In this document: in pieces, positions 397 to 33,307 of the stretch
Position numbering within the stretch: the first letter of the stretch is position 1
Layout of the letters: each line of letters begins with the position of its first letter
Assembly (NCBI GenBank): GCA_000934665.2
Contig: JYFJ02007101.1
Coordinates: forward strand, 1-33,686
Reading direction: 5' to 3'
DNA length: 33,686 bases
Source: Catajapyx aquilonaris
Lineage: Eukaryota
Translations under genes and position numbers: made by a program
Notes under the pieces: generated by a model
Databases searched by the model: none
What the model saw: the letters and a program-made list of their open reading frames with translations, nothing else
What the model was told of the DNA's origin: nothing

Positions 397-1557
397 TCAC
401 ATGTGCCGGTCCAAGTGGTACTTTTGTCCAAACACGTTTCCACACTCAGTGCACAAAAAGGGTTTTTCTCCAGTGTGAGTTCGCATGTGCTGGTCCAAGT
501 GGCACTTTTGTCCAAACCCCTTTCCGCACTCCGGGCAAGAAAAGGGTTTTCCACTCGTATGAGTTCCCATATGCTGGTCCAAGTTGCACTTTTGTCTAAA
601 CCCTTTTCTGCATACAGTACATGAAAAGAGCGCTTCTCCAGTGTGAGAAAACATGTGTCTATCCAATAGGCACTTTTGCTCAAATGTCTTAGCACATACC
701 CTGCAAGAGTATGTGTGGGTTTTCATATGCTTCCCCAACAGGTCCTTTCGATAGAAGCCCCTATTGCAGACGTCACAAAAATATTTCCTTTCACCGTGCA
801 CCTCACTGTGCAGAGTCAAATTCCTTTTATACTTGAATGATTTCTCGCAGATCATGCACTGGTGTGGTCCTTCATTTGGGTGGACCCTCCTGTGATACCC
901 TAATTGGCGACCAGTTTTAAACAACTTCAAGCATACGTTACAAGAAAAGACTTTCTGATTTACATTATTGCTCTCGTCATTGTCCAAACACTGTGATTCT
1001 TCAGGTGCTGGGAATCCAGAAGGCAGCCCTCCTGCGGCATCTATTCCAGTTGGCGGTTCACCCTCCTGAAAGAAGCCAACATATTGTATATTAGAACACA
1101 CTGCTGTACGACCTCATAGTCTTTCATTTCTGTGCACATGCATGACTCTTTAAGATGCGATTCAGTTTAAACAACTTCAGGCATACCTGACATGAAAACT
1201 CTTCCTGATCGTATGAGTTGTGTTGCACATTCAGCACTGTCTCATGCTCCATCTTGACAAACAGCTGCTCTTCCATGCTGTTGCTTCCTTCTTGCGGATA
1301 CTCCTGTAAATATCAGTCATGTACTGTACGCAGTTATTCGCATGCAAAAATGAATGCCACAAGTCCTTCCTTCACACCTCAATAATGAAGACGGCTATGA
1401 ATTTGCATGAGTCGTTGGGATTGTCATTATTAGTTATTATAAAAATGCTGATGAACAGTATTGTCTTGGCTTGTTCATTAACTAAGATCATAGGACAGAA
1501 ATGTAAGATTTTTTACAAAAGTAGAGAGGCTGTGAAAGTCCCACACCAATCAAGCAA

Positions 1558-1631
<74 letters not shown>

Positions 1632-3887
1632 TTAATATTAATAATAATAGATACCCCATTATCAGCCCTTTAGGCTTTATTAGGGGGGGATTTTTCCCAA
1701 TTTTTTTGTCTGGAACTCTCCATTTTTACTATACTTTTCATCGGAATTGAGGCAAGGATAGGTAAGGAAGGAAGCGGCTGTGGCCTATAATTACGGTAAC
1801 GACCCCGGAATTATCCTGCGGTGACCATGGGAAACCACAGAAAACCATGATCAGGGTTGCCGGCCTCCGGGATTCGAACCCAGGACCTCCCTATTAGCAG
1901 TCGGACACAATACCACTACACCCCTACTGCTTCGGTTCAATCAAGCAAATATATTTTTTCCTAATCACTTGTGCAAATGAAAATGATTAGGCATATAAAA
2001 AACGTCTTGTAATAGTAATTAGAGCGGAAATCATTGCTAATAATATTTGTTGCAAATGTACGAAGACTGTCTTATTCAACGAGCTACTGCGCAAACATAA
2101 GTTTACCGTATTTGACGGCATATAAGACGCACCCCCACTTCAGTAGATCATATACAGGAAAATAAAAGTTCTTAAGTGTATTTTCCCATATAAGATGCAA
2201 GGTCATTTCTTGAGCAATTTATTGGGGGGAATAGTGTCTCTCATATGACTTCAAATATGGTAATTAAAATTGTAGTGGGCATCTTGCCAGTTAATAAAAA
2301 TAATTGACGGCTCTGCCAGCCATCGGGGCGTATTTATCAATCGTGAAATTAACACCCTGCACTTCTATGCACTGTAAATAGAGGAAAATAACTGTGCTAC
2401 AAAAATATTATTAGCAACAAATTGTAATTTTAACAAGCTGATAATAATTGGACACTAATTTCTCTCATGACCAATCAATGTCCAATCGAACAAGGAAGTA
2501 AATTTCCCAATCAGTTCTGAAGAGGACATAAATTTTCACAAAATAAAAGCAGCATGCTCATATTCACCTTGGCGGTAATTCCTTGGCTCACTTTAAGAAG
2601 TCCTCCTGGTGGTTGTTGCTCCGAGATACTGTCACCTGTTTTCATGGCAGTGCTGGAAGAAGGCTGGCTCGGTTCATGCACTGGCACCAGAGGCGTCAAA
2701 CCCTCTTCCTATGAAAGGTTAAAGTAAAATATATTTTCGACAACACATGCTTCAAGCCCCTATAACATTTACCTAACGGGGTAAATGCATGCTGTAATAC
2801 ACTTTTCACATGTGAAATTGCCTCCCCTTTTCAACAAAAAATGTTCATTTTCCGATCGCTGTGCAAGTCACTGGTAAAAAGCGAGATTTTTGCAAACAAA
2901 TGTAATTTCCAAATGAGGGCCAAAGTCAAATGCCATCACATTGACATCAAAATGCGATCCAAAGTGTCCTCTCCCTGCGATACAAATGACATTTCGGAAG
3001 GAATTATAAGAAGTCGGTGTCAAATTACGGAAGAAAATAGTAGACTACGGAGGTGTGTATTCCGAGGCGAAACTCGGGGGTATAAAGGACTCTCAAGATG
3101 TGCTTGTTGCCAGTGCGTCACACTTTGCAGACAAATTCTAAACGCAAGCAATCTAAGCAGATCATCCTCCCAAACCAGATTGTACCTGATGCGAAGAGAC
3201 TTCATGATATTCCCAGGATGGTTGGAAACCCGCACTCTCTTCCTCCCAGTCCTCCTGCGAAAATAAGCATCGCAGTGTCTGATATCACGTTATACCTAAG
3301 GTGACGCACAATTTACCTCGCCATGAGGCTGTTGCTTAACAGTGGTGTCGTCAGGGATGGCCTGCTCCTCCTCCGCAGCCTGTTGCGACTCCCACTGGTC
3401 CTCAACCTCCACTTTGACGCAACTCACCGGCACTTCTTCTTGCGGCTGTTCTGCCGGCAACTCCTGACAGTGAGCTTCACTTGCAGGCGGCTCTGGAATT
3501 GAGCGGCACAGCGTTGATCCTACGCAGTGCAAACGGGACATATCAATGGAACCCTTTCGCTAATGCGCTTGTGTTGCTGTGAAGGGATGACCCACCGTCC
3601 CTCCCCGTGGCGTCTGCTGCTGTCCCACCACCAGCGGCGGCCTCCCTCCTCCTCCTCCGGCCGGCCATCCCTTCCCATGGTGGCCCTTCCCCCGCCCAGA
3701 GGAGGTCCTCCACCTTCCCCAGCAGCCTCCTCTCCATCTCCTCCATCCGGACCTCCATCTGGCCCAGCAGCTTCCAGGACACCTGGTCCCACCTGGACAC
3801 CAGCCCTTCCAGGAGGAGCCTGTTCCCCTCCACCGCGCCCAGCACCAGCCCCACACTGCCGACCATCTCCTGCTGGCCCATCTCCAT
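397..3887 (-). CDS. C2H2 ZnF gene unit A (about 496 aa), C-terminally truncated by a premature stop
   Basis: Exons 3887-3596, 3519-3317, 3254-3186, 2708-2568, 1303-1187, 1065-397, all GT..AG with compatible phases (1,0,0,0,0). Six intact fingers. CGA>TGA at 399-397 breaks finger 7, finger 8 follows in frame, and finger 9 has an 8-nt deletion near 280. Confidence 0.75.
1563..1937 (-). mobile_element. tRNA-derived SINE with (ATT)n tail and 16-bp TSD
   Basis: Minus-strand head has A-box-like GGTGTAGTGG and B box GGTTCGAATCCC. (AAT)n tail at about 1563-1648. TSD CAATCAAGCAAATATA at 1547-1562 and 1938-1953. Paralogous empty site at about 24124. Confidence 0.92.
2106..2260. mobile_element. pogo/Tigger-like MITE, ancestral to the duplications
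   Basis: TA-flanked imperfect TIRs, CCGTATTTGACGGCATATAAGACGCAC ... consensus GTCTTATATGCCGTCAAATACGG. Confidence 0.75.
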
Positions 3888-4048
3888 CCCTCTCAATTAG
3901 TATAATGCCCTAATTAATAATAATTAGCCGATTAATTAATAGCTCCTGGAACTGGAGAAGAGAGAGAAAATGTCTGGAGATATCACTAGTTCAATGAGTT
4001 GCCGAGTGGGGGCAGCACGTGACATTCAGGGTTTGGCCTATCCAAATT

Positions 4049-4090
4049 GGACCAAAGATGGCGGACAGTGTATGCCGCCATGTTTGGTCC
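4049..4090. promoter_or_regulatory. Inverted repeat containing two YY1/Pho-like motifs upstream of E1 (unit A)
   Basis: GGACCAAAGATGGCGG-N10-CCGCCATGTTTGGTCC, repeated at the same position in units C, E and G. Regulatory role is inferred. Confidence 0.5.
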
Positions 4091-4312: not shown

Positions 4313-4999
4313 TTAAGCCGGATCTTTGGCATGCACTGCCATGTGCCTGTCCAGTACCTGCTGGTACGCAAACCGTTTGCAGCACATTGTGCAGGAGAAG
4401 GGCCTTTCTCCCGTGTGAGTTCGCATGTGGACAACCATGTTCGACTTTAATGTAAACCCTTTTCCACACTCCGTGCACGAAAAGGGTTTTTCTCCAGTGT
4501 GAGTTCGCATGTGCCGGTCCAAGCCATACTTTTGTCTAAACCCTTTTCTGCATACAGTACATGAAAACACTACAATGTGAGAAAACATGTGGCTTTCCAA
4601 TTGGCACTTTTGCTCAAATGTCTTAGCACATACCCTGCAAGAGTATGTGTGGGTTTTCAAATGCCTCCCCAACAGGTCCTTTCGATAGAAGCCCTGATTG
4701 CACACGTCACAAAAATATTTCCTTTCGCAGTGCACCTTGCTGTGCAGAGTCAAATTCTTCTTATACTTGAATAATTTGTTGCAGATCATGCACTGGTGTG
4801 GTCCTTCATTTGCGTGGAGCCTCATGTGAGACTTCAATTGGCGATCAGTTTTAAACAACTTCAGGCATACGTTACAAGAAAAGACTTTCTGATTTACATG
4901 AGCGCTCTCGTCATTGTCCAAACGGTGTGCTTCTTCAGGTGCTGAGAATCCAGAAGGCAGCCCTCCTGTGGTATTGATTCCAGTTGGCGGTTCATCCTC
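4313..4999 (-). CDS. Orphan ZnF exon B (7 fingers) with no E1-E5 of its own
   Basis: Open frame from acceptor TTCTTTCAG|GAG at 4999. Homology upstream ends at about 5050, followed by unrelated DNA and then the 3' end of unit C. Confidence 0.65.
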   Translation of the reverse strand, partial: EDEPPTGINTTGGLPSGFSAPEEAHRLDNDESAHVNQKVFSCNVCLKLFKTDRQLKSHMRLHANEGPHQCMICNKLFKYKKNLTLHSKVHCERKYFCDVCNQGFYRKDLLGRHLKTHTYSCRVCAKTFEQKCQLESHMFSHIVVFSCTVCRKGFRQKYGLDRHMRTHTGEKPFSCTECGKGFTLKSNMVVHMRTHTGERPFSCTMCCKRFAYQQVLDRHMAVHAKDPA

Positions 5000-5600
5000 C
5001 TGAAAGAAGCCAACATGCTGTATATTAGAATAACACGCTGCTGTACGACTGACTCTCTTCCATAGCCTAAGATACCGCATTAATAAAACCGGACACAAGA
5101 CAAGGTCCAAAAGCCAGCGTAGGGGCAGGGCCAATGACAGGAGCAAAAAATTGATCGCAGCAGGCGAATTTTTGGGGGTTAAGCTTCAAGGCCACACAAG
5201 CCTCGGTGAATTTTCGTTTAAGTTTTGTACATCCCCCCCATGCCCCTCCTAACATCGTCGATGAACTTCATTGTCGCATCGATCCTGTCCGCAGCGGCCA
5301 GGAGTGGTTCTGTATTACTGTTGGATGGCCGTGGTTCAAACCCTGTCCCCGCCACCTCTGCTTGTCCTGGTCTTTTTCCACTTTTCTCCCGACATGCCGG
5401 CGCCGAATACAACTTAAAATGAAACTTCCAATGTACAATCTTCAATTTATTTGTTCCAAGTGCAAAATAGTTTTGGTAAGACCACAGATGATTGTGGTTA
5501 CAAAAATGACACTGCCGCTGCCCTAGTACAAAAATAAATAAATTGAGGTCATTGGAAGTTTATCCAGAAAGTACATTTTCAATTGTCTACGTACACTATA

Positions 5601-5690
5601 CGAGGTGTGATCAAAAAGTTCCCAGACTGTGTTCATAAAAACATTAACATTCACTTATCGACAGTCCGGGAACTTTTTGATCACACCGTG
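5601..5690. mobile_element. 90-bp mariner-type MITE
   Basis: About 30-bp TIRs CGAGGTGTGATCAAAAAGTTCCCAGACTGT / ACAGTCCGGGAACTTTTTGATCACACCGTG. TA on both sides (5599-5600, 5691-5692). Empty site GTACACTATAGCCTTTT at about 17241. Confidence 0.92.
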
Positions 5691-6213
5691 TAGCCTTTTA
5701 CTGAACGGAAACATTGGTTTTTAAGAACTTATGATAAACCCATCAAATGTTTCATCCAAAGACATTTTCCGAGCAGCTGATGTGACAGCATTAGAACAAG
5801 AATGCAAAAAGAGCAGACAATATTGCGTGCTACGTACAATACCAATTGTAGACATTGCGTTTTAACAAAACCAAAGATATTATTGTGAAAAGTCGCAACT
5901 GCTACCCAGAGGCATCTGCCGCAACATTGGGGAAGATGGGTCAATGCAGAGGACACTGAAATGCTTGACTCTAACCAGTTCTGTATGAATGACTTCATTA
6001 CTTCTCATGACACCAGTTAGCATGTTCAATTAAGGGGGAAAAATCTTGAAACAAAAGAGAATATGGCACGTAACAAAAATTTCTGACTGGTTTGAAGAAC
6101 ATATATACGTCGCCAACTATGAATCGGGTCATACTTTCCACAGTCCTTGCACCACACAAAGGCACTTGCTGCTGCAAACCGGATTTTTCAGTGAAACGTT
6201 TCTTACACAGTAT

Positions 6214-8723
6214 TCACACAAAAGCCGGATCTTTGGCATGCACTGCCATGTGCCTGTCCAATACATGCTTGCGCGGAAACCCTTTGCAGCACAGCTTACA
6301 AGAAAAGGGCCTTTCTCCCGTGTGAGTTCGCATGTGGGCAACCAAGTTGCACTTTAATGTAAACCACTTTCCACACTCCGCGCAAGAAAAGGGTTTTTCT
6401 CCAGTGTGAGTTCGCATGTGCTGGTCCAAGTCAGACTTGCATCTAACCCCCTTTCCACACTCAGTGCACGAAAAGGGCCTTTCTCCCGTATGAATTTGCT
6501 TGTGGACGACCAAGCTGGACTTTAGTCTAAACCCTTTTCTGCATACAGTACATGAAAACAGCACTTCTCCAGTGTGAGAAGACATGTGGCTTTCCAATTG
6601 GCACTTTTGCTCAAACGTCTTTTCACATACCCTGCAAGAGTACCTGTGGGTTTTCAAATGCGTCCCCAACAGGTCCTTTCGAAAGAAGCCCTTATTGCAC
6701 ACGTCACAAAAAAAATTCCTTTCACCGTGCATCATGCTGTGCTTAGTCAAATTCTTTTTATACTTGAAAGATTTCTCGCACACCGTGCACTGGTGTGGTC
6801 CTTCATTTGCGTGGGGCCTCATGTGAGACTTCAATTGGCGATCAGTTTTAAACAACTTCAAGCATATGTTACAAGAAAAGACTCTCTCATTTACATTAGC
6901 ACTCTCGTGATTGTCCAATCGCTGTGCTTCTTCAGGTGCTGAGAATCCAGAAGGCAGCCCTCCTGCGACATCGGTTCCAGTTGGCGGTTCATCCTCCTGA
7001 AAGAAGCCAACATACTGCATATTAGACCACACTGCTGTACGACTACGTACAGTCTTTCATTTGTGTGCAGCTGCATGACTCTTTAATATGCGATTAAGTT
7101 TAAACAACTTCAGGCATACCTGACATGAAAACTCTTCCTGATCGTTTGAGTTGTGTTGCCCATTCAGCACTGTCTCATGCTCCATCTTGACAAAGAGCTG
7201 CTCATCCATGCTGCTTCCTTCTAGCGGATCCTCCTGAAAATATCAGTCATGTACTGTACGCAGTTATTCGCATGCAAAAGTGAATCCCACAAAAGTCCTT
7301 CCTTCACACCTCAATAATGAAGACGGCTACGAATTTGCATCCTTCTGTATGAGTCGTTGGTATTGTCATTACTAGTTATTATAAAAATGCTGACAAACAG
7401 AATTGTCTTGGCTTGTTGATTAACTAAGGTCATAAGACCGAAATGTAAGATTTTTTTACAAAAGCAGAGAGGCTGCGAAAGTCCCACGCCATTCAAGCAA
7501 ATATTTTTTACAAATCAAGTACGCAAATGAAAATGATTTGGCATATAAAAAACGTCTCGTAACAGTCATTAGAGTGGAAATTATTGCTAATAATATTTGT
7601 TGCAAAAGTACGAAGACTGTCTTATTCGACGAGCTACTGTGCAAACATTAATTTACAGTATTTTACGGCATATAAGACGTACGCCCACTTCAGCAGTTCA
7701 TATTCACGGGAAAAAAAAGTGTATTTTCGCACATAAGATGCAAGCCGATTTTTTGGGCAATTTCTTGGGGGAAAAGTGTAATTTCCAAATGGGGTCCAAA
7801 GTGTCCTCTATCTGCGATACAAACGACATTTTGGAAGGAATTATTAGACGTCGGTGTCAAATTACGGATGAAAATAGTAGACTATGGAGGTGTGATTTCA
7901 GAGGCAAAACTCAGGGGTAGAAAGGACTCCTTCAGGAATATATGTGCTTTGTTGCCAGTGCGTCATGCATTCCAGACTAATTCTTAACGCAAGCCGTCTT
8001 AGCAGATCATGCTCGCAAACCAGATTGTACCTGATGCGAAGAGACTTCATGATATTCCCAGGATGGTTGGAAACCCGCACTCTCTTCCTCCCAGTCCTCC
8101 TGCGAAAAGAAGCATCGCAGTGTCTGATATCACGTTATACCTAAGGTGACGCACAATTTACCTCGCCATGAGGCTGTTGCTTAACAGTGGTGTCGCCAGG
8201 GATGGCCTGCTCCTCCTCCGCAGCCTGTTGCGACTCCCACTGGTCCTCAACCTCCACTTTGACGCATCTCACCGGCACTTCTTCTTGCGGCGGTTCTGCC
8301 GGCAACTCCTGACAGTGCGCTTCACATGCAGGCGGCTCTGGAATTGAGCGGCACAGCGTTGATCCTACGCAATGCAAAGAGTACATATCAATGGAACCCT
8401 TGCGCTAAGGTGTTGAAGGGAGACCCACCGTCCCTCATCCCCGTGGCGTCTGCTGCTGTCCCACCACCAGCGGCGGCCTCCCTCCTCCTCCTCCGTCCGG
8501 CCATCCCTTCCCATGGTGGCCCTTCCCCCGCCCGGAGGAGGTCCTCCAGCTTCCCCAGCAGCCTCCTCTCCATCTCCTCCATCCGGACCTCCATCTGGCC
8601 CAGCAGCTTCCAGGACACCTGGTCCCACCTGGACACCAGCCCTTCCAGGAGGAGCCTGTTCCCCTCCACCGCGCCCAGCACCAGCCCCACACTGCCGACC
8701 ATCTCCTGCTGGCCCATCTCCAT
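6214..8723 (-). CDS. C2H2 ZnF gene unit C (about 487 aa, 8 fingers), intact, lacks E4
   Basis: Exons 8723-8429, 8364-8162, 8099-8031, 7233-7120, 6996-6214. E4 was removed by a deletion with junction near 7775; the frame is kept because the exons are phase 0. Confidence 0.8.
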
Positions 8724-8884
8724 CCCTCTCAATTAGTAACGCTCCCTAATTAGTAATTATAGCCGATTAATTAGCAGCTCCTGGAGAAGAGAGAGAGAGA
8801 GAAAAATGTCTGGAGATTTCACTAGTTCAATGAGTTGCCGAGTGGGGGCAGCACTTGACACTCAGGGTTTGGCCTATCCCATTT

Positions 8885-11125: not shown

Positions 11126-11959
11126 TTGCTGATGATTAATTCCAGTTTCATTCCAAAGAACAAGCCTTGCTGTCCACTACAACCTTCTTCAATTTATTTG
11201 TTCCAAGTACAAAATAGTTTTGGTCCGACCACGGATCATTGTGGTTACAACATGACATTGCCGCTGCCCAAGTAGAAAATTAAATAAATAGAAATCATAG
11301 GAAGTTCATACAGAGAGTACATTTTCAATTATTGTCTACGTCTCCGTACACTATAGGCTAGTCTTTTACTGGACGGACACATTGGTTATTAAGAACTTGC
11401 GATGCACCCATCAAATGTTTCATCCAAAGACATTTTCCGAGCAGCTGAAGTGACAGCATTAGAACCAACAAAATGCAAAAAGAGCAGACAATATTGCTTG
11501 CTACTTACAATTCCAATTGTAGACACAGGGTGTTAAAAAACCAAAGATATCATTTTCGAAAGTTGCAACTGCCGCGCAGAGGCATCTGCCCCAGCAATGG
11601 ACCAGATGAGTCAACTTAAGGACATGTAAATACTGGACTCGGACATGTTCTGTACCAATGACTTCATTACTTCCCATGACAGCATTTAGCAAGTTAAATG
11701 ACGGGGGATAAATAATTAAACAAATAAGAATATGGCACTTGGAAGATGTAACAAAAATCTCTGACTGGTTTGATGAGCATACGTATGTGGCCAACTATGA
11801 ATCGGGTCATACTTTCCACAGTCCTTGCACCACACAAGGGTGGTCCTGCATGGGCTGCTGCAAACCGGATTTTTCAGTGAAGCCTTTCTTACAGAGTATT
11901 CACACAAAAGCAGGATCTTTGGCATGCACTGCCATGTGCCTGTCCAATACATGCCTGCG

Positions 11960-12179: not shown

Positions 12180-12885
12180 TATATGTGCTTGTTGCCAGTG
12201 CGTCATGTTTTCCAGACTAATTCTAAACGCAAGCCGTCTTAGCAGATCATGCTCGCAAACCAGATTGTACCTGATGCGAAGAGACATGTTGAGATCCCCA
12301 GGATGGTTGGCGAACATGATTCTCACCCGCACTATCTTTCTTCCTGTCCTCCTGTGAAAAAGAGGCATCGTAGAGTCTGGTATCAAGTTATCTGGTACAA
12401 GAACTTGACGCACAACCATTTACCTCGCCATGAGGCTGTTGCTTAATACTGGTGTCGTCAGGGATGTCCTGCTCCTCCTCCGCAGCCTGTTGCGACTCCC
12501 ACTCATCCTCAACCTCCACTTTGACGCACCTCACAGGCACAAACCCTTGTTCTTGCGGCGGTTGTGGCGGCAACTCCTGATAGGCAACTCCTCATAGTTT
12601 ATCTCAGTTTAGCAGCAGAAGTAAAGGCAACTAAGGTCATAAGACCGAAATGTAAGGTTTTTTACTAAAGTAGAGAGGTTGTGAAAGTCCTATGCCACAG
12701 AGACAATCAAGCAAATATTTTTTACAAATCACCTGTGCAAATGAATATGATTTGGCTAGAAAAAAATGGTCTGGGTATCAGTAATGAGAGTAGAAATGAT
12801 TGCTAATAATATTTGTTGCAAAAGCACTAACAGTAAATGCGTCTTATTCGACGAGCTTGATTGAATCTGCGCAAACATTAATTTA

Positions 12886-16599: not shown

Positions 16600-16688
16600 C
16601 TGAAAGAAGCCAACATACTACATATTAGACCACACTGCTGTACGACTACATACACTCTTTCATTTGTCTCTGCGCAAACATTAATTTA

Positions 16689-17796: not shown

Positions 17797-20700
17797 TCAC
17801 ACAAAAGCCAGATCTTTGGCATGCACTGCCATGTGCCTGTCCAATCCATGCTTGTGCGCAAACCCCTTGCAGCACACCTTACAAGAAAAGGGCCTTTCTC
17901 CCGTGTGAGTTCGCATGTGACGGTCCAAGCCATACTTGCTTCTAAACCCCTTTCCACACTCAGTGCACGAAAAGGGTTTTACTCTCGAATGAGTTCCCGT
18001 GTGCTGGTCCAAGTGGCACTTTTGTCTAAACCCTTTTCTGCATACAGTACATGAAAACAGCGCTTCTCCAGTGTGAGAAGACATGTGGCTATCCAATAGG
18101 CACTTTTGCTCAAACGTCATTTCACATACCCTGCAAGAGTATGTGTGGGTTTTCTTATGCTTCCCCAACAGGTCCTTACGATAGAAGCCCTGACTGCACA
18201 CATCACAAAAAAAATTCCTTTCGCCGTGCACCGCGCTGTGAAGAGTCAAATTCTTTTTACGCTTGAAAGATTTCTCGCATATCATGCACTGGTGTGGTCC
18301 TTCATTTGGGTGGACCCGCATGCGAGACCTTAATTCGCAACCAGTTTCAAACAACTTCAAGCATACGTTACAAGAAAAGACTTTCTGATTTACATTAGTC
18401 CTCTCGTCATTGTCCAAATGGTGTGCTTCTTCAGGTGCTGGGAATCCATAAGGCAGCCCTCCTGCGGTATTGATTCCAGTTGGCGGTTCATCCTCCTGAA
18501 AGAAGCCAACATACTGTATATTAGAACACACTGCTCTACAACTATGTATAGTCTTTCATTTGTGTGCAGCTGAGGGGGAGGCACGGTGGCCGAGATGGTA
18601 ACGTCTCGGCTTGCTATGCGAAAGGTCCCGGGATCAAATCCCCACCCGGGAGCAAACATTTCGCTTGCATCAATGGGTCGTGACCCGCGCCTAAGGAGGC
18701 GTCTTGGCAACCTGACCTCCTGGGGGGACTGCACCTGGCCCACCGCTGGACAATGCACCTGCACATGTGTCCCCTCCCCAAACCCTCCAACCCTTACCCC
18801 ATTTCCTAGTATTCTTTGCACCGGAGTCCGAAGATAAATACCAAGAAAACTGTATGGTGGTCTGCCACCTGCTTTCCGACTACATAGAGTCTTTCATGCA
18901 TGACTCTTTAAGATGCGATTAAGTTTAAACAACTTCAGGCATACCTGATATGAAAACTCTTCCTGATCGTATGAGTTGTGTTGCATATTCAGTACTCTCT
19001 CATTCTCCATCATGCCAAATAGCTGCTCTTCCATGCTGCTTCCTTCTTGCGGATACTCCTGAAAATATCAGTCATGTACAGTACACGGTCAATCGCATGC
19101 AAAAATGAATGCCACAAGTCCTTCCTTCACACCTCAATAATGAAGATGCCTATGAATTTGCATCCTTCTGTATGAGTCGTTGGCAATGTCATTATTTTAT
19201 TATAAAAATCCTGATTAACAGTACTGTCTTGGCTTGTTCATTAACAAAGGTTCTGAAGAAGCCATAAATTTGCACACACAAAAAAAAGCAGTCATGTGCA
19301 TATTCACCTTGGCTGTAATTACTTCGCTCACGTTAAGAAGCGCTCCTGGTGGTTGTTGCTCCGAGAAACTGTCGGCTGTTTGCATGGCAGTGCTACAAGA
19401 AGGCAGGCTCTCTTCATGCCCTGGCACCAGAGGCATCGAACCCGCTTCCTACGAAAAGTTAAAGTAAAATATATTTTCGACAACACGTGCTTCAAGAGCT
19501 AATTTGTCTTATTCTTAAGAGTCCTCTACAACCTGAGAAAGCTTTTTCCCCTTCTGGATTCCAAATTTTGAAGCTATCCAGGGTTCACAGGGGGAATTTT
19601 TTGGCCTCCGAGAAGTGTCAAAAAAAAATTCATTTTGCTACGTAACATCGGCAACTACTCAAAAAATGACAGTTTTCCTTGTTCTTCTTGCAATAAAAAT
19701 TACACAATGAAGATAGGTACACAACTCGCATATATGTTACCGATATTTCAACAAGCTTCTTATGATCAATACAGTTATTTTTTGGAGCATTTTCCTGGAA
19801 GTTATTTAGAGTCAAACACAAGGGTCATTATTTTAAAAAATGGATAGTAGGCAGTTGTCTATAGAGCGGCAGATTTCAAGGGTCAGTGCCATTCGAAAGA
19901 GACTCTCTGACTCCTTCGGCACTGCTTCTTACCAATTTAAAATAATTTTGCTTACCATCGCGCTGAGAGCAGGCTTTAAAAATCCAGATTTCGTTAAATT
20001 TCTGAATTTTTATTGGCCAAAATAATAGATATTTTAAAAAACTGACAAGCAGCGATGACAGAGGGACATCTTCTAAGCTTATAACAATTTTTATATTAGA
20101 AGTCGGTGTCAAATTACGGAAGAAAATAGTAGACCACGAGGTGTGTTTTCAGAGGTGAAACTCGGGGGTATAAAGGACTCTTAAGTAATATGTGCTTGTT
20201 GCCAGTGCGTCAAACTTTGTAGACAAATTCTAAACACAAGCAGTTCATGCTCGCAAACTAGATTGTACCTGATGCGAAGTGCCATCATGAGATTCCCAGG
20301 ATGGTTGGCGAACATGATTCTCACCCGCACTCTTTTCCTCCCAGTCCTCCTGCGAAAAGAAGCATCGTAGTGTCTGATATCACGTTATACCTAAGGTGAC
20401 GCACAATTTACCTCGCCATGAGGCTGTTGCTTAACAGTGGTGTCGTCAGGGATGGCCTGCTCCTCCTCCGCAGCCTGTTGCGACTCCCACTGGTCCTCAA
20501 CCTCCACTTTGACGCACCTCACCAGCACTTCTTCTTGCGGCGGTTCTTCCGGCAACTCCTGACAGTGCGCTTCACATGCAGGCGGCTCTGGAATTGAGCT
20601 GTACAGCGTTGATCCTACGAAGTGCAAAGAGTACATATCAATGGAACCCTTGCGCTTGTGTTGCTGTGAAGGGATGACCCACCGTCCCTCATCCCCGTGG

Positions 20701-20980
20701 CGTCTGCTGCTGTCCCACCACCAGCGGCGGCCTCCCTCCTCCTCCTCCGGCCGGCCATCCCTTCCCATGGTGGCCCTTCCCCCGCCCAGAGGAGGTCCTC
20801 CAGCTTCCCCAGCAGCCTCCTCTCCATCTCCTCCATCCGGACCTCCATCTGGCCCAGCAGCTTCCAGGACACCTGGTCCCACCTGGACACCAGCCCTTCC
20901 AGGAGGAGCCTGTTCCCCTCCGCCGCGCCCAGCACCAGCCCCACACTGCCGACCATCTCCTCCTGGCCCATCATCTCCAT
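17797..20980 (-). CDS. C2H2 ZnF gene unit E (about 511 aa, 7 fingers; finger 1 has His>Arg), all six exons open
   Basis: Exons 20980-20683, 20614-20412, 20349-20269, 19448-19308, 19058-18945, 18495-17797, with canonical splice sites and phases. Confidence 0.8.
18573..18876 (+). mobile_element. tRNA-derived SINE (second family), apparently 3'-truncated, in intron 5 of unit E
   Basis: A box TGGCCGAGATGG at 18587-18598 and B-box-like GGATCAAATCC at 18631-18641. Absent from paralogous introns. No tail seen. Confidence 0.75.
19519..20180. mobile_element. TTAA-flanked non-autonomous DNA transposon (Kolobok-like) in intron 3 of unit E
   Basis: TTAA|GAGTCCT ... GGGTATAAAGGACTC|TTAA, with TTAA at 19515-19518 and 20181-20184. 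Termini start with purines. Confidence 0.65.
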
Positions 20981-21168
20981 CGCTCTCAATTAGTATAATG
21001 CCCTAATTAATAATAATTAGCCGATTAATTAACAGCTCCTGGAGAAGAAAGAGAGAGAGAGAAAATGCACGTGGCAACTGGCACGTGGAAAATGTCTGGA
21101 GATTTCACTAGTTCAATGAGTTGCCGAGTGGGGGCAGCAAGTGACACTCAGGGTTTGGCCGATCCCGT

Positions 21169-22369: not shown

Positions 22370-22374
<5 letters not shown>

Positions 22375-22861: not shown

Positions 22862-25741
22862 TCACACAAAAGCAGGATCTTTGGCATGCACTGCCATGTG
22901 CCTGTCCAATACATGCTTGCGCGGAAACCCTTTGCAGCACACGATGCAGGAAAAGGGTGTTTCTCCCGTGTGAGTTTGCATGTGCCGGTCCAAGTCATAC
23001 TTGCTTCTAAACCCCTTTCTACACTCAGTGCACGAAAATGGTTTTTCTCCCGTGTGAGTTCGCATGTGCTGGTCCAAGTGGCACTGTCGTTTAAACCCCC
23101 TTCCACACTCCAGGCACAAAAAGGGTTTTTCTCCGGTATGAGTTCGCATGTGCTTGTTCAAGTCTGACTTTTGTCTAGACCCTTTTCCACACACCGTACA
23201 TGAAAACAGCACTTCTCCAGCAGTGTGAGAAAACATGTGGCTATCCAATTGGCACTTTTGCTCAAACGTCATTTCACATACCCTGCAAGAGTATGTGTGG
23301 GTTTTCAAATGATTCTCAAACAGTTCCTTTCGATAGAAGCCCGGATTGCACACGTCACAAAAAAATTTCCTTTCACCGTGCACCTTGCTGTGCAGAGATA
23401 AATTCCTTTTATACTTGACAGATTTGTTGCCGATCATGCACTGGTGTGGTCCTTCATTTGCGTGGACCCACATGTGAGACTTTAATTGGCAACCCGTTTT
23501 AAACAACTTCAAGCATATGTTACAAGAAAAGACTTTCTCATTTACATTATTGCTCTCTGGATTGTCCAACCACCGTGCTTCTTCAGGTGCGGAGAATCCA
23601 GAAGGCAGCCCTCCTGTGGCATCGATTCCAGTTGGCGGTTCATCCTCCCGAAAGAAGCCAACATACTGTATATTAGACCACATTGCTTTACGACTAAGAG
23701 TCTTTCATGCATGACTCTTTAAGATGCGATTAAGTTTAAACAACTTCAGGCATACCTGACATGAAAAATCTTCCTGATCGTATGAGTTGTGTTGCACATT
23801 CAGCACTACGTCAGGCTCCATCATGACAAAGGGCTGCTCTTCCATGCTGCTTCCTTCTTGCGGATCCTCCTGAAAATATCAGTCATGTACTGTATGCAGT
23901 TATTAGCATGCAAACATGAATGCCACAAGTCCTTCCTTCACACCTCAATAATGAAGACGGCTACGAATTTGCCTCCTTCTGTATGAGTCGTTGGTATTGT
24001 CATTATTAGTTATTATAAAAATGCTGACAAACATAATTGTCTTGGCTTGTTGATTTACTAAGGTCATAAGAGCGAAATGTAAGATTTTTTTACAAAAGCA
24101 GAGAGGCTGTGAAAGTCCCACGCCAATCAAGCAAATATATTTTTACAAATCACCTGTGCAAATCAATATGATTTGGCATATAAAAAACGTCTGGTAACAG
24201 TAACTAGTGCAGAAATTATTGTTAATAATATTTGTTGCAAAAGTACGAAGACTGTCTCATTCGACGAGCTACTGTGCAAACATTAATTTACGGTATTTGA
24301 CGGCATATAAGACGCTCCCCCACTTCAGCAGTTCATATTCAGGAAAAAAAAAAAGTTCTTAAGTGTATTTTCCCACATAAGATGCAAGCCAATTTTTTGG
24401 GCAATTTTTTGGGGGGAAAAGTGTGTCTTATATGCCATCAAATATGGTAATTAAAATTACAGCGAACAGTAACTATACATATTGGGCATCATTGCCAGAT
24501 AATAAAAATAACTAATGTCTCTGCCAGCGTATTTATCAATCGTGAAGTTAACAACCTGCATTTCTAGGCACTGTAAATAGAGGAAATTAACTGTGCTGCA
24601 AATATTATTAGCAACCAATTGTAATTTTGAGAAGCTGATAAATGGTCACTATAATTTTAGCTGATGACCAATCAGTGTCCAATCGAACAAGGAAGTAAAT
24701 TTCCCAAGCATTTCTAACAAGCCCATAAATTTGCATGGAATAAAATCAGTATATTCACCTTGTATGTAATTCCTTGGCTCACGTTAAGAAGTCCTCCTGG
24801 TGGTTGTTGCTCCAAGATATTGTCGCCTGTTTGCATGGCAGTGCTGCAAGAAGGCTGGCTCTCTTCATTCCCTGGCACCGGAGGCGTCCAGCCCGGAACC
24901 TGCGAAAGGTTAACGTAAAATATATTTTTGACAACACGTGCTTCAAGAGCTTGTTGCCAGTGCTTCATGCTTTGCAGACTAATTCTAAACGCAGGCAGAT
25001 CATGCTCGCAAACCAGATTGTACCTGATGCGAAGTGCAATCGGGAGATTTCCAGGACGGTTGGCAAACATGATTCTCACTCGCACTCTCTTCCTCCCAGT
25101 CCTCCTGCGAAAATGAGCATCGTAGTGTCTGACTGATGTAAAATTATACAAACGTGACGCACAATTTACCTCGCCATGAGGCTGTTGCTTAACAGTGGTG
25201 TCGCCAGGGATGGCCTGCTCCTCCTCCGCAGCCTGTTGCGACTCCCACTGGTCCTCAACCTCCACTTTGACGCACCTCACCAGCACTTCTTCTTGCGGCT
25301 GTTCTGCCGGCAACTCCTGACAGTGAGCTTCACTTGCAGGCGGCTCTGGAATTGAGCTGTACAGCGTTGATCCTACTCAATGCAAAGAGTACATGTCAAT
25401 GCAAGGCTTTCTTTAATGCGCTTGTGTTGAAGGGATGACCCACCGTCCCTCATCCCCGTGGCGTCTGCTGCTGTCCCACCACCAGCGGCGGCCTCCCTCC
25501 TCCTCCTCCGGCCGGCCATCCCTTCCCATGGTGGCCCTTCCCCCGCCCAGAGGAGGTCCTCCAGCTTCCCCAGCAGCCTCCTCTCCATCTCCTCCATCCG
25601 GACCTCCATCTGGCCCAGCAGCTTCCAGGACACCTGGTCCCACCTGGACACCAGCCCTTCCAGGAGGAGCCTGTTCCCCTCCACCGCGCCCAGCACCAGC
25701 CCCACACTGCCGACCATCTCCTGCTGGCCCATCGTCTCCAT
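22862..25741 (-). CDS. C2H2 ZnF gene unit F (8 fingers; finger 2 has Cys>Gly), possibly pseudogenising
   Basis: Exons 25741-25444, 25372-25170, 25104-25024, 24899-24759, 23869-23756 and 23647-22862 are all open. The E6 acceptor is CGG instead of CAG (23650-23648), and the upstream conserved block is replaced from about 25795. Confidence 0.6.
24291..24447. mobile_element. pogo/Tigger-like MITE copy
   Basis: TA|CGGTATTTGACGGCATATAAGACGC ... GTGTCTTATATGCCATCAAATATGG|TA. Confidence 0.75.
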
Positions 25742-28044: not shown

Positions 28045-31000
28045 TCACACAAGAGCCAGATCTCTGGCATGCACTGCCATGTGACTGTTCAATACATGCT
28101 TGTACGCAAACCCTTTGCAGCACACCTTACAAGAAAGGGGCCTTTCTCCCGTGTGAGTTCGCATGTGGACAACCAAGTTCGACTTTTCTGTAAACCCCTT
28201 CCCACACTCAGTGCAAGAGAAGGGTTTTTCTCCAGTGTGAGTTCGCATGTGCTTGTCCAAGTGAGACTTGCACGTAAACCTCTTTCCGCACTCAGTGCAT
28301 GAAGAGGGTTTTACACTCGTATGAGTTCGCATGTGCTGGTCCAAGTTGGACTTTCGTCTAAACCTTTTCCCACATACAGTAGAAGAAAAAGGCACTTCTC
28401 CAGTGTGAGAAGACATGTGGCTTTCCAATAGGCACTTTTGCTCAAACGTCTTTGCACATACCCTGCAAGAGTATGTGTGGGTTTTCAAATGCCTCCCCAA
28501 CAGGTCCTTTCGATAGAAGCCCCTATTGCAGACGTCACAAAAATATTTCCTTTCACCGTGCACCTCACTGTGCAGAGTCAAATTCCTTTTATACTTGAAT
28601 GATTTCTCGCAGATCATGCACTGGTGTGGTCCTTCATTTGGGTGGACCCTCCTGTGCCACTTCAATTGGCGATCAGTTTTAAACAACTTCAGGCATACGT
28701 TACAAGAAAAGACTTTCTCATTTACATTAGCACTCTCGTGATTGTCCAACCGCTGTGCTTCTTCATGTGCTGAGAATCTATAAGGCAGCCCTCCTGCAGT
28801 ATAGATTCCAGTTGGCGGCTCATCCTCCTGAAAGAAGCCAACATACTACATATTAGATCACACTGCTGTACGACTACATAGAGTCTTTCATGCATGACTT
28901 TTTAAGATGCGATTCAGTTTAAACAACTTCAGGCATACCTGACATGAAAACTCTTCCTGATCGTATGAGTTGTGTTGCACATTCAGCACTGTCTCATGCT
29001 CCATCTTGACAAACAGCTGCTCTTCCATGCTGTTGCTTCCTTCTTGCGGATCCTCCTGAAAATATCAGTCATGAACAGTACGCACTCATCCGCATGCAAA
29101 AGTGAATGCCACAAACGTCCTTCCTTCACACCTCAATAATGAAGACGGCTATGAATTTACATCCTTCTGTATGAGTCGTTGGCAATGTCATTATTTTATT
29201 ATAAAATTACTGATGAACAGTATTGTCTTGGCTTGTTGATTAACAAAGGTCATAAGACCGAAAGGTAAGATTTTTTACAAAAGCAGAGAGGCTGTGAAAC
29301 TCCCATGACAATCGAGCAAAAAATTTTTACAAATCACCTGCGAAAATGAAAATGATTTGGCATTTAATAAATTTGGCATTTAATAAATGTCTGGGTAACA
29401 GTAATGAGAGCGAAAATTATTGCTAATAATATTTGTTGCAAAAGTACTAAGACTGTCTAATTCGACGAGCTTGATTGAATATGTGCAAATATTAATTTGA
29501 AGTATTTGACGGCACATAAGAAGCATCCCCATTTCAGCAGGGCATATTCAGGGAAAAAAAGTTCTTGCGTTAGTATATTTTCGCATATAAGAAGCAGGGC
29601 GATTTCTTGAGCAATTATGAACTCGAGTGCTTGAGCATGTATGATTCGCTATTATGCTCGCTTCCTACGAAAGGTTAACGTAAAATATATTTTCGACAAC
29701 ACATGCTTCTAGAGCTAATTTGTCTTATTCTTAAGAGTCCTTTCTACCCAGACAGCCTGAGAAAGCTGACTTTTTCCCCCTCTGGATTCCAAATTCGAAG
29801 CTATCCAGTGTTCACAGGGGAAATTATTTGGCCTCCGAGAAGTGTAAAAAAAAAATCATTTTGCCGCATAACGTAGGCAACTACTCAAAAAATGACACTT
29901 TCCTGTGTTCTTGCGATAAAATTTACACAATGAAGATAGGCAAACAACTCGCATATCTGTTACCGTGATTTACACAAGCTTCTAACGATGAATAAGGTTA
30001 TTTTTTGGAGCATTTTCCTGGAAGTTATTTAGTCAAACATAGGGGTCAATATTTTTAAAAATGGATAGTAGGCAGTTGTCTATAGAGCGGCAGATTTCAA
30101 GGGGCGGCAAATTGAGTGGGAGATATGTTTGAGTCCGGGTCAAGTTAGGCCATTTCCCATAAGGATTTGCTCTGCTGATGTGTGGTTGCCTATCTACAGA
30201 TGCTACTTGTAATTTTATCAGATTTACGGGCTATTACATATCCCTAATGGCGTAAATGCATGATGTAATACTTGTTTCAAATGTGAAATTGCCTGCCCTT
30301 TTCGGCAAAAAAAATTTCATTTTTTAACAGCTGCACAAATCACTGGTAAAAAGTGATATTTTTGCAAACAAATGTAATTTCAAAATGAGAGCCAAAGTCA
30401 AATGGCATCACATTGGCATCAAAATGCGGTCCAAAGTGTCCTCTACCTGTGATACAAACGACATTTTGGAAGGAATTATTAGAAGTCGGTGTCAAATTAC
30501 GGAAGAAAATTGTAGACTACAGAGGTCTGTTTTCCGAGGCGAAACTCGGGGGTAGAAAGGACACTTTATGTAATACATGTGCTTGTTGCCAGTGCGTCAT
30601 GCTTTCCAGACTAATTCTAAACGCAAGCCGTCTTAGCAGATCATGCTCGCAAACCAGATTGTACCTGATGCGACGAGACATCATGAGATCCCCAGGATGG
30701 TTGGAGCATATGATCCTCACCCGCACTCTCTTCCTTCCAGTCCTCCTGTGACAAGAAGTATCGTAGTGTCTGATATCACGTTATACCTAAGGTGACGCAC
30801 AATTTACCTCGCCATGAGGCTGTTGCTTAACAGTGGTGTCGGCAGAGATGTACTGCTCCTCCTCCGCAGCCTGTTGCGACTCCCACTGGTCCTCAACCTC
30901 CACTTTGACGCACCTCACAGGCACTTCTTCTTGCGGCTGTTCTGCCGGCATCTCCTGACAGTGGGCTTCACATGCAGGCGGCTCTGGAATTGTGCGGTAC

Positions 31001-31357
31001 AGCGTTGATCCTACGCAGTGCAAACGGGACATATCAATTAAATGCGCTTGTGTTGCTGTGAAGGGACCCACCGTCCCTCCCCGTGGTGGCTGCTGTCCCA
31101 CCACCAGCGGCGGCCTCCCTCCTCCTCCTCCGGCCGGCCATCCCTTCCCATGGCGGCCCTTCCCCCCGGAGGAGGTCCTCCACCTTCTCCAGCAGCCTCC
31201 TCTCCATCTCCTCCATCCGGCCCTCCATCTGGCCCAGCAGCTTCCAGGACACCTGGTCCCACCTGGACACCAGCCCTTCCAGGAGGAGCCTGTTCCCCTC
31301 CACCGCGCCCAGCACCAGCCCCACACTGCCGACCATCTCCTCCTGGCCCATCTCCAT
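28045..31357 (-). CDS. C2H2 ZnF gene unit G (about 489 aa if the E4 remnant is skipped; 8 fingers; finger 5 has Cys>Ser)
   Basis: Exons 31357-31072, 31010-30808, 30745-30665, 29055-28939, 28827-28045. Only the acceptor and first codons of E4 remain, at 29664. Confidence 0.75.
29735..30564. mobile_element. Kolobok-like element, longest copy (intron 3 of unit G)
   Basis: TTAA|GAGTCCTTTCTACCC ... GGGTAGAAAGGACAC|TTTA; 14/15 TIR match. Right-end remnants in unit A (to 3092) and unit C (to about 7929). Confidence 0.65.
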
Positions 31358-31519
31358 CCCTCTCAATTAGTAATGCGCCCTAATTAATAATTATAGCCGA
31401 TTAATTAATGGCTCCTGGAGAAAAGAGAGAGAGAGAGAAAATGTCTGGAGATTTCACTAGTTCAATGAGGTGCCGAGTGGCGGCAGCACTTGACATGCAG
31501 GGTTTGGCCTCTCCAATTT

Positions 31520-31561: not shown

Positions 31562-31669
31562 GGAAAAGGTTTGGCGGTCGAATTTATTTCATTTCATCTA
31601 TTATACTTACTATTTACAATAATTAGTCACTAATAGGAGTTCTTAACACGGCGTGTTCCCATAGACATC

Positions 31670-31830
31670 AAGACATGTGGCTGTCCAGTTGGTACTTACG
31701 CTGAAATGTCTCTTCACATTTCGAGCAAGAGTATGCGTGGATTTTCATATGATCTTTCTAATAGATCTTTTCGATGGCCTTATCGCACAAGTCACAAAAA
31801 AAAATTGCCTAACACCATGCACCGCACTGT
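31670..31830 (-). pseudogene. Diverged, frameshifted ZnF exon fragment (end of finger 2 to finger 4)
   Basis: Reads approximately SAVHGVRQFF..CDLCDK..RKDLLE..HMKIHAYSCSKCEETFQRKYQLDSHMS, with indels. Confidence 0.75.
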
Positions 31831-32302
31831 AATTTATGGACACAATTTATTCGTTCCAAGTACAAATTAGTTTCGGTCGGACCACAAACCATTGTGATTA
31901 CAAAACAACAATGCTGGTACACTAGTTTAAAAAATTTGAGGTCATAAGAAGCTCATACATAGAAAGTAATTACATAAGACAGGGGGAGGAGGGAGTCTTC
32001 AATTGTGTACATGCACTGCCTGGAATTGCCTGGAATTGACTCGGCCAAGTTCTGTGCCAATGACTTCATTACTTCCCATGGCAGCAATTAGCAAGTTAAA
32101 TGAACGGGGGGAAAACTTGAAACAAAAGAGAATATGGCACTTGGAAGATGCAACAAACATCTCTTGACTGGTTTGATGAGCATACGTATGTGGCCAACTA
32201 TGAATCGGGTCATACTTTCCACAGTCCTTGCACCACACAAGGGTGGTCCTGCATGTGATGCTGCAAAACGGATTTTTCAGTGAAGCCTTTCTTACACAGT
32301 AT

Positions 32303-33307
32303 TCACACAAAAGCGGGAGCTTGTGCATGCACTGCCATGTGCCTGTCCAATACATGCTTGTGTGCAAACCCTTTGCAGCACACGATGCAGGAAAAGGGCC
32401 TTTCTCCCGTGTGAGTTCGCATGTGATAGTCCAAGCTGGACTTCCATCTAAACCCTTTTCCACACTCAGTGCACGAAAATGGTTTTCCTCCCATATGAGT
32501 TCGCATGTGCTGGTCCAAGTGGCACTTTTGTCCAAATCGCCTTCCACACTCCAGGCAAGAAAAGGGTTTTTCTCCAGTATGAGTTCGCATGTGCTTGTCC
32601 AAGCCATACTTTTGTCTAAACCCTTTTCTGCATACAGTACATGAAAACAGCACTTTGTGAGAAGACATATGTGGCTATCCAATTGGCACTTTTGCTCAAA
32701 CGTCATTAATTTCACGTACCCTGCAAGAGCATGTGTGGGTTTTCAAATGATTCTCAAACAGTTCCTTTCCATAGAAGCCCTGATTGCACACTTCACAAAA
32801 AAATTCCGTTTCACCATGCACCTTGCTGTGCAGAGTCGTATTCCTTTTATACTTGAAAGATTTGTTGCCGATCATGCACTGGTGTGGTCCTTCATTTGCG
32901 TGGACCCACATGTGAGACTTTAATTGGCAACCCGTTTTAAACAACTTCAAGCATATGTTACAAGAAAAGACTTTCTCATTTACATTATTGCTCTCTGGAT
33001 TGTCCAAACACTGTGCTTCTTCATGTGCGGATAATCCAGAAGGCAGCCCTCCTGCGGTATTGATTCCAGTTGGCGGTTCATCCTCCTGAAAGAAGCCAAC
33101 ATACTGTATATTAGAACACACTGCTTTACGACTAAGAGTCCTTCATGCATGACTTTTTAAGATGCGATTAAGTTTAAACAACTTCAGGTTTACCTGACAT
33201 GAAAACTCTTCCTGATCGTATGAGTTGTGTTGCACATTCAGCACTACGTCAGGCTCCATCATGCCAAATAGCTGCTCTTCCATGCTGCTTCCGTCTTGCG
33301 GATCCTC
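32303..33307 (-). pseudogene. Unit H: E5 (33307-33194) and a frameshifted E6 (33085-32303, 8 fingers); upstream exons not in the window
   Basis: A +4 insertion near 32708 and a +2 insertion near 32668 disrupt finger 4, with a stop at 32698-32696 between them. Confidence 0.75.

Follow-up and report, generated by a model that had tools for sequence, protein, structure and literature searches.

The genome assembly of Catajapyx aquilonaris (GCA_000934665.2) carries, on contig JYFJ02007101.1, a tandem array of genes for C2H2 zinc-finger proteins. We analyzed positions 1 to 33,686 of this contig, a stretch of 33,686 nt that is hereafter called the window. The array is probably a young, lineage-restricted gene family that grew by tandem duplication on the minus strand and whose members share a module encoded by their first two exons, E1 and E2. 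Units of about 5 kb follow one another, and every long open reading frame (ORF) for zinc fingers lies on the minus strand. When one unit was compared with the window by blastn, complete units including their introns were 83-93% identical in a single orientation, and no inverted paralogous copies other than simple repeats were found within the window. Paralogous matches inside the window covered all but 14 segments totaling 5786 nt (17%), and these segments may be insertions.

Repeat analysis gave six copies of a family, D10, that corresponds to the GC-rich block of E1. The copies are 286-298 nt long, lie 4836, 5441, 6813, 4761, and 5619 nt apart, differ from one another by 2.1% on average, and occupy the same place within their units. 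The 1-kb bins that contain the E1 block have a GC content of 0.49-0.56, versus 0.37-0.45 in the other bins. A second family, D8, has eight copies of a 300-nt block that belongs to the 5' region of the finger exon, and many further families show the 84-nt periodicity that is typical for C2H2 arrays. An earlier reading of the same DNA, hereafter the original prediction, had described six near-identical E1 copies, eight finger exons, and several decaying copies in a tandem C2H2 cluster that evolves by birth and death and keeps its N-terminal module constant, and all of these were recovered. Decay is visible in unit 1, which carries a nonsense codon, in unit 3, which lacks E5 and E6, in the frameshifted unit 7, and in two orphan finger exons. 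The birth-and-death description is supported by this range of states, in which intact, decayed, and orphan copies occur together with the loss of an upstream element. The anatomy is real and exceeds chance expectation.

The exon model was obtained by reading the minus strand, with splicing modeled and anchored on borders that are conserved among the copies (Table 1). It comprises six exons, namely E1 (286-298 nt), E2 (203 nt), E3 (69 or 81 nt), E4 (132 or 141 nt), E5 (114 or 117 nt), and E6, which is the finger exon. Modeled donors read GT in 28/28 cases and modeled acceptors AG in 27/28, which leaves 55/56 boundaries kept. The sole exception is the upstream candidate acceptor of E6 in unit 1, which reads AA. 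E6 has a second candidate acceptor 18 nt further in, which preserves the frame and has a better pyrimidine tract. This inner acceptor is homologous to the E5 acceptor, is intact in 7/8 copies with unit 5 as the exception, and coincides with position 33085, where the original prediction had ended the cluster. When their exons are joined, units 2, 4, 5, and 6 keep one reading frame free of internal stops and encode 494, 518, 547, and 496 amino acids (aa), respectively, which gives four apparently intact gene models of six or five exons. E4 is present in 4/6 units, and the units without it stay in frame because E4 is a whole number of codons. The orphan finger exons at 5017-4313 and 16617-15646 may be relics or alternative last exons.

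Table 1. Modeled exons, exon relics, and upstream elements of the zinc-finger cluster, with positions in the window.
Feature	Position	Strand	Remarks
Unit 1 E1	3596..3887	-	292 nt; ATG at 3887; GT donor next
Unit 1 E2	3317..3519	-	203 nt, acidic, VKVE motif
Unit 1 E3	3186..3254	-	69 nt
Unit 1 E4	2568..2708	-	141 nt
Unit 1 E5	1187..1303	-	117 nt
Unit 1 finger exon Z1	397..1083	-	6 complete fingers, 7th cut by nonsense codon; upstream acceptor AA, inner acceptor intact; decaying
Orphan finger exon Z2b	4313..5017	-	7 fingers, open frame; AG acceptor kept; without own E1-E5
Unit 2 E1	8429..8723	-	295 nt
Unit 2 E2	8162..8364	-	
Unit 2 E3	8031..8099	-	69 nt; unit 2 without E4
Unit 2 E5	7120..7233	-	
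Unit 2 finger exon Z2a	6214..7014	-	8 fingers, all zinc ligands intact; 494-aa model, no internal stop
Unit 3 E1	13873..14167	-	295 nt
Unit 3 E2-E4	13195..13796	-	E2 13796-13594, E3 13531-13451, E4 13326-13195; no E5/E6 after, dead unit
Unit 3 extra partial E2-E3 copy	12187..12583	-	
Unit 3 E6 relic	11739..11959	-	3' end of finger exon, all that remains
Orphan finger exon Z4b	15646..16617	-	10 fingers, finger 3 without a His ligand; AG acceptor kept; without own E1-E5
Unit 4 E1	20683..20980	-	298 nt; copy used for searches and fold
Unit 4 E2	20412..20614	-	
Unit 4 E3	20269..20349	-	81 nt
Unit 4 E4	19308..19448	-	
Unit 4 E5	18945..19058	-	
Unit 4 finger exon Z4a	17797..18513	-	7 fingers, finger 1 without a His ligand; 518-aa model
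Unit 5 E1	25444..25741	-	298 nt; conserved upstream element missing in unit 5
Unit 5 E2	25170..25372	-	
Unit 5 E3	25024..25104	-	
Unit 5 E4	24759..24899	-	
Unit 5 E5	23756..23869	-	3' end and start of next intron paralogous to start of finger 1
Unit 5 finger exon Z5	22862..23665	-	8 fingers, finger 2 without a Cys ligand; 547-aa model
Unit 6 E1	31072..31357	-	286 nt; most divergent E1
Unit 6 E2	30808..31010	-	
Unit 6 E3	30665..30745	-	unit 6 E4 lost, only its acceptor region left at 29664-29716
Unit 6 E5	28939..29055	-	
Unit 6 finger exon Z6	28045..28845	-	8 fingers, finger 5 without a Cys ligand; 496-aa model
Unit 7 E5	33194..33307	-	unit 7 E1-E4 would fall past window end
Unit 7 finger exon	32303..33103	-	3+4 fingers; frameshifting indels between 33103-32696 and 32674-32303; pseudogene
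Conserved upstream element core	21105..21120	-	about 125 nt upstream of ATG; other copies 3983-3998, 8819-8834, 14262-14277, 31454-31469
AT-rich TAATTA-type block, unit 4 copy	21004..21032	-	just upstream of ATG; conserved in 6/6 units

Tandem C-x2-C-x12-H-x3-H fingers joined by TGEKP-type linkers, 6-10 in each of the eight exons, place the encoded proteins in the C2H2 family. The exon at 15646-16617 matched zf-C2H2 (PF00096) with an expect value (E) of 1.3e-40 over nine stretches and zf-H2C2_2 (PF13465) with E 9.3e-59. In the homologue search with a finger exon, 7304/8000 scored candidates passed E 1e-20. The 120 matches listed were generic poly-zinc-finger proteins of 35-50% identity, mostly frog KRAB-ZNFs, and are therefore uninformative on orthology or taxonomy. 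The arrays open with four constant-type fingers that have unusual short linkers and close with a constant C-x2-CC finger. Between these ends lie 2-5 fingers that differ in number and type. The expectation that the finger exons differ in finger number and recognition helices therefore holds for the middle of the arrays, and the types of fingers 1-4 and of the last finger do not vary. About 120 nt beyond the finger-exon stops (e.g., 6094-6213, 17677-17796, 22742-22861, and 27925-28044), all copies carry one or two further finger relics out of frame, with C-E-Y-C followed by KKGFTEKSVLQQHMQDH in a different frame and after that by WCKDCGKY. These relics show that the array was originally longer.

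Selection on the variable fingers was measured on 17 nearest-neighbor pairs from different genes, drawn from 23 variable-zone fingers; because fingers recur in more than one pair and the pairs are not strictly orthologous, the p-values are indicative only. At the contact positions -1, 2, 3, and 6, the proportions of nonsynonymous (pN) and synonymous (pS) differences were 0.236 and 0.154, respectively, with a pN/pS of 1.54. Non-contact finger positions gave a pN/pS of 0.46 with a pN of 0.066, so that change is 3.6 times denser at the contacts. The four zinc ligands gave a pN/pS of 0.01, with 1 nonsynonymous versus 9 synonymous differences. Contacts differed from the remaining positions with Fisher p = 6e-10 and an odds ratio of 4.3, contact pN exceeded pooled pS with p = 0.015, and the four contact positions rank among the five most-changed of 28. 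Diversification is thus concentrated at the DNA-contacting residues of the recognition helices, as had been proposed.

The first 128 codons of E6 carry no indel in 8/8 copies and have a pooled pN/pS of 0.91, with pairwise values of 0.50-2.55. By class of position, the ratio there is 0.17-0.25 for ligands, 1.26-1.54 for contacts, 0.73-1.03 for scaffold, and 0.86-1.26 for the pre-finger stretch. Six of the eight finger exons are stop-free. In a rough neutral simulation at 5.8% divergence, an exon stayed stop-free with a probability of 0.06-0.16, and at least 6/8 stop-free exons had a probability of ~6e-5 under the assumption of independent lineages, which is only partly true. Judged from these substitution patterns, the family is under weak overall constraint, with frames and ligands kept and change concentrated at the DNA-reading residues.

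The front end of the proteins is of a different kind. E1 has 95-99 codons and encodes neither Cys nor His, and E2 has 68 codons and is acidic. AlphaFold2, run on a single E1 sequence with no alignment, predicted a helix at residues 6-66, with a predicted local distance difference test score (pLDDT) of 92-98 at residues 11-60, and a second helix at 71-87 that contains an RRRRR tract. The mean pLDDT was 83.5 and the predicted template modeling score was 0.50. The hydrophobic moment of residues 31-66 at 100 degrees was 1.11 versus 0.48 in shuffled sequences, a value reached by 1.2% of 3000 shuffles. The pattern psi-K-x-E is the SUMO consensus. E2 contains VKVEVEDQ in 6/6 copies and E5 contains VKME in 3/6, where a rough estimate puts the chance expectation for such motifs at ~0.6 in a front region of this size. 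The VKVE motif of E2 as a putative SUMO site is a lead.

Pfam, with E up to 0.1, reported a sole match for E1, the sub-threshold HSBP1 at E 0.014-0.017. A resemblance of E1 to DUF3669 was considered and dropped because Pfam reported nothing beyond that match. E2, E4, E5, and the pre-finger stretch had no Pfam match. KRAB, ZAD, SCAN, and BTB were absent by Pfam from the three sense frames of E1 and from E2, E4, E5, and the pre-finger stretch, with E3 covered only within read-through ORFs. For the 250/250 other ORFs that have 45 aa or more, counted on both strands, Pfam reported no domain either, whether KRAB, ZAD, SCAN, BTB, or a transposon protein. A phmmer search of the Protein Data Bank (PDB) with E1 returned only a lamin coil at E 0.55, and a Foldseek search of it with the E1 model returned 0 matches. 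The original prediction had placed a module without KRAB or ZAD, and without a known relative, before the fingers; Pfam gave neither domain, and none of the libraries searched held a relative. As far as its sequence tells, the E1 front end is previously uncatalogued.

Over the last codons of E5 and ~40 nt at the beginning of the following intron, the sequence shares 80-84% identity with the start of finger 1 (FSC..C LKLFK). In unit 5, E5 at 23756-23869 and the intron start at ~23715-23755 align with 23534-23580, and the other units are alike. What was once a finger codon now contains the E5 splice donor GT. E5 resembles an incomplete duplicate of the finger exon's 5' portion.

E1 and E2 combine signs of coding with an unusual constancy. 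In the alignment of the copies, each gap run in E1 measures 3 nt, E2 is free of gaps, and a single 12-nt run occurs in E3. The introns adjoining E1-E3 have runs of 12, 8, 5, 3, 12, 4, and 1 nt, with 12, 8, 5, 3, and 12 nt in intron 1. E4 has indels of +3 and -12 nt, and E5 has one of 3 nt. The GC contents at the three codon positions of E1 (GC1/2/3) are 0.69/0.48/0.88, and this periodicity fits the modeled frame only. In 6/6 copies, the E1 ATG is flanked by G at -3 and +4, and a stop lies in frame at -12. The phase of the conserved GT donor of E1 leads into the one frame of E2 that makes sense. Variable columns number 31/501 in E1 and E2 versus 33/142 in introns 1 and 2 (Fisher p = 4e-8), and both exons are 4-6 times less divergent than their introns. 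The pS is 0.017 in E1 and 0.031 in E2, and the pN is 0.022 and 0.039, respectively.

Along the gene, GC3 and silent-site divergence run opposed. GC3 and pS are 0.88 and 0.017 in E1, 0.63 and 0.031 in E2, and 0.51-0.56 and ~0.12 in E3-E6; taken singly, pS is 0.12 in E3 and ~0.12-0.14 in E6. The flanks of E1 have a GC content of ~0.42-0.44, and intron 1, which is 71-76 nt long with a GC content of 0.44, is 12.8% divergent. The four-gamete test was failed by 335/630 pairs of informative sites. These mosaic site patterns show gene conversion or recombination among the copies, as read from the alignment. The fall of divergence with rising GC3 suggests GC-biased interlocus conversion.

Upstream of E1, a conserved element occurs in 5/6 units versus 0.37 matches expected by chance, and it is a possible promoter element. 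Repeated TAATTA motifs adjoin the very G-rich E1 in all six copies, unit 5 included, and this block could be a TATA-like or homeodomain-type site.

The dense transposable element insertions of the original prediction were not confirmed, as no transposon protein domain and only one sub-threshold head of a tRNA-like short interspersed nuclear element (SINE) were found. Transposon protein domains numbered 0 in the other ORFs described above (250/250) and in 12/12 ORFs of at least 80 aa, 11 of which have at least 100 aa. Rfam at the gathering threshold gave 0 matches, and ARAGORN gave 0 tRNAs. The segment at 1563-1937 on the minus strand, within intron 4 of unit 1, is unit-specific and has a tRNA-like head and an (ATT)n tail. 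The head contains a perfect B-box at 1870-1880, and the Rfam tRNA model aligned to 1867-1922 with 20 bits and E 0.14, below threshold. This segment is likely a tRNA-derived SINE inserted in intron 4 of unit 1, judging by its head and tail. The B-box motif has 4 matches in the window versus 1.13 expected, and 4/100 shuffles reach 4. B-box-like strings occur in 5064-5405 and 18573-18864, with a scored motif match only in 5064-5405, and the Rfam tRNA model had no match at 18500-18950. The unit-specific segments do not match one another except in five short weak stretches of 29-87 nt. An inverted repeat at 24283-24455, with 31-nt arms 111 nt apart, resembles a miniature inverted-repeat transposable element, and a third related arm lies 2.7 kb off at 27041-27070. 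A separate 32-nt hairpin lies at 5599-5692. The window contains one N, at 22326 within a (GA)n/(GAGAGA) simple repeat (~22280-22400), which is probably a small assembly gap.

Several observations weigh against a family of working genes with a shared E1-E2 module. The pN/pS is 1.28 in E1 and 1.26 in E2, and the pS of these exons lies 3-8 times under the divergence of intron 1 (0.128) and intron 2 (0.081). Of the 16 variable sites of E1, 13 are nonsynonymous and 3 synonymous, with similar splits in the other two frames (3:13 and 5:11). Because G makes up 50% and T 13% of its sense strand, E1 is open in all six frames, and an open frame therefore proves little. The heptad (3.5-residue) periodicity of E1 is not over that of shuffles (fraction 0.44), and E1, though amphipathic, is therefore called a helix and not a proven coiled coil. 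A phmmer search of E1 against 1.84e9 representative proteins gave 0 hits, a word-indexed search among longer proteins found relatives of E1 in 0/2795 candidates, and the ESM Atlas had no usable match, with a low recognition value of 1523. Silent sites are conserved in E1 and E2 and the few changes are mostly nonsynonymous, so the conservation is not codon-specific. The constancy of E1 and E2 looks, from these substitution counts, like concerted evolution or nucleotide-level constraint and not like plain protein-level purifying selection, and it is therefore no proof, on its own, of a conserved protein domain. The constant N-terminal module of the original prediction is borne out by the near-identity of the copies, but a codon-level purifying signal is lacking (pN/pS ~1.3).

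E1, or E1 and E2 together, could on these grounds lack the modeled translation and instead be a conserved non-coding, RNA, or DNA element such as a leader, a promoter-proximal element, or a small-RNA target, with the protein starting at a Met in E4 or E5, where in-frame ATG codons are present. We consider this unlikely. Such an element would account for synonymous sites as conserved as nonsynonymous ones beside introns that differ by 8-13%, for a substitution pattern that favors no frame, for six frames opened by base composition, and for the lack of a homologue in any library searched. It fits poorly with indels that are all multiples of three, unlike those of the introns, with GC3 > GC1 > GC2 in the modeled frame only, and with the start context and donor phase described above. 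E1 was also rejected as a CpG island (observed/expected 0.45 versus 0.62 for the window), and a structured RNA is not supported, the fold being ordinary (z = -1.64, with 12/200 shuffles folding as well).

It is also conceivable, though distinctly improbable, that the array is essentially dead, a recent block of zinc-finger pseudogenes drifting neutrally with ancestral signals of selection. A pN/pS of 0.9 in E3, next to the 0.91 in the first 128 codons of E6, points this way and weighs against a working family. So do zinc ligands lost from a finger in at least four arrays (Z4a, Z4b, Z5, Z6, Z7), the lesions in Z1 and Z7, a unit 3 without E5-E6, the two orphan finger exons, and the absence of the conserved upstream element from unit 5. 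However, no stop interrupts 6/8 finger exons and no indel occurs in the 128 codons of any of the 8 copies despite ~12% synonymous divergence, nearly all modeled splice boundaries are kept, and E1 and E2 are far less divergent than their introns. Within the variable fingers, the near-absence of nonsynonymous change at the ligands and the denser change at the contacts also argue against neutral drift. A dN/dS near 1 throughout, which the original prediction had named as counting against it, was found for E1-E3 and the first 128 codons of E6 (0.9-1.3), but not for the variable fingers, where ligands, non-contact positions, and contacts gave 0.01, 0.46, and 1.54. The constancy of E1 and E2 might, lastly, come solely from a local hotspot of GC-biased interlocus conversion, without selection on the peptide and with the apparent domain as a by-product. 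The opposed course of divergence and GC3, the mosaic sites, and the mostly nonsynonymous residual changes would all agree with such a hotspot. Yet conversion tracts that homogenized both exons should have covered intron 1, which is short, divergent, and AT-richer, and E1 tolerates only 3-nt indels. We regard this explanation as very improbable. For a divergent intron 1 between conserved E1 and E2 (e.g., 20412-20980), simple conversion tracts are inadequate, and no account fits fully.

In the reading that we prefer, a young gene family with a shared E1-E2 module, we infer splicing, expression, effector role, and targets from the DNA alone. A complete gene would encode a long amphipathic helix and the RRRRR tract in E1, the acidic VKVE-containing stretch in E2, short acidic linkers in E3-E5, with E4 optional, and 7-10 fingers in the last exon. 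New copies would arise by unequal crossing-over of whole units, and some copies would then decay. The arrays would change through gain or loss of 84-nt finger units and through substitutions at contact residues. E1-E2 would most likely be held near-identical by interlocus gene conversion combined with selection. The fingers would bind specific DNA sequences, and E1-E2 would act as a shared protein-interaction or repression module. Possible routes are self-association or cofactor binding by the helix, nuclear import by the basic tract, and SUMO-dependent repression through VKVE. SUMO-dependent heterochromatin silencing is documented in Drosophila in the accessible part of one report (10.1101/533091). 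More specifically, E1-E2 might be a private repression and oligomerization cassette kept letter-identical by exon-restricted concerted evolution, in an invertebrate analogue of the KRAB-ZNF system whose arrays track transposons or other fast-changing DNA. We offer this as a tentative proposal and hold it doubtful. In a bolder variant, the silent-site conservation of E1-E2 would reflect a second, nucleotide-level function, e.g., as a small-RNA or regulatory target common to the members, through which the whole family is co-regulated.

The KRAB-ZNF clusters of tetrapods offer a close parallel. They too evolve by tandem birth and death, carry a constant N-terminal module on exons of its own, place the finger array in one last exon, and change by gain and loss of fingers and by substitutions at positions -1, 2, 3, and 6. 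KRAB genes have one or two KRAB exons, and their proteins recruit TRIM28/SETDB1 and repress transposons. The present units have five front exons, the window is without a KRAB (PF01352) match, and E1 is a predicted single long helix of no Pfam family. A KRAB-like logic of constant front, contact-residue diversification, and birth and death of copies, as the original prediction had drawn it, is supported by the sequence comparisons.

The FiNZ genes of cyprinid fish resemble the family in other respects. In the accessible text of Wells et al. (2023, PMC10547256), the FiNZ sequence has 28 residues, is encoded by a single exon, and is unique to cyprinids, and the FiNZ genes have expression and knock-down evidence. 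As that text describes them, they have a lineage-restricted, acidic-rich N-terminal sequence without a known domain before a single finger-array exon, and they form a large young family under adaptive evolution (PMC10547256). The pattern of finger change is as in young KRAB or FiNZ paralogues, as far as the same text describes them (PMC10547256). E1 differs from FiNZ in its length of 95-99 residues and in the four further front exons behind it, phmmer against the 1.84e9 representatives showed no sequence relation, and the family is known here from sequence alone. By exon structure and by the E1 database search, it is set apart from FiNZ as that family is described.

The ZAD zinc-finger proteins of arthropods (PF07776) likewise have an N-terminal module before C2H2 arrays and show lineage-specific expansion. 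The ZAD binds zinc through four cysteines, whereas E1 lacks Cys and His and has no ZAD match in Pfam. SCAN-ZNF (PF02023) and BTB-ZF (PF00651) proteins, which have an N-terminal oligomerization domain, are also distinct, as Pfam gave no match to either domain and Foldseek of E1 against the PDB gave none. According to the accessible part of Bonchuk et al. (2021, PMC7913770), the ZAD is a homodimerization module, and by analogy a role of the E1 helix in homodimerization is possible. On present comparisons, the family is best filed as a lineage-restricted C2H2 subfamily defined by a private N-terminal module, a design already known from others.

KRAB, ZAD, and FiNZ are the best-known cases in which a genome builds new DNA readers against targets that change, and each independent case reveals the parts that such a design needs. 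The case described here would add a front end without a catalogued relative, in which a long helix is combined with a basic tract and an acidic motif of the SUMO type, together with a textbook pattern of selection on the fingers. What is unusual is that the front exons are conserved at silent sites and the ~70-nt intron between them is not, and of the loose ends this is the most interesting. Should the genes be expressed, the cluster would offer a compact system, with four intact genes in 33 kb, for the study of front-end repression or pairing and of exon-limited homogenization.

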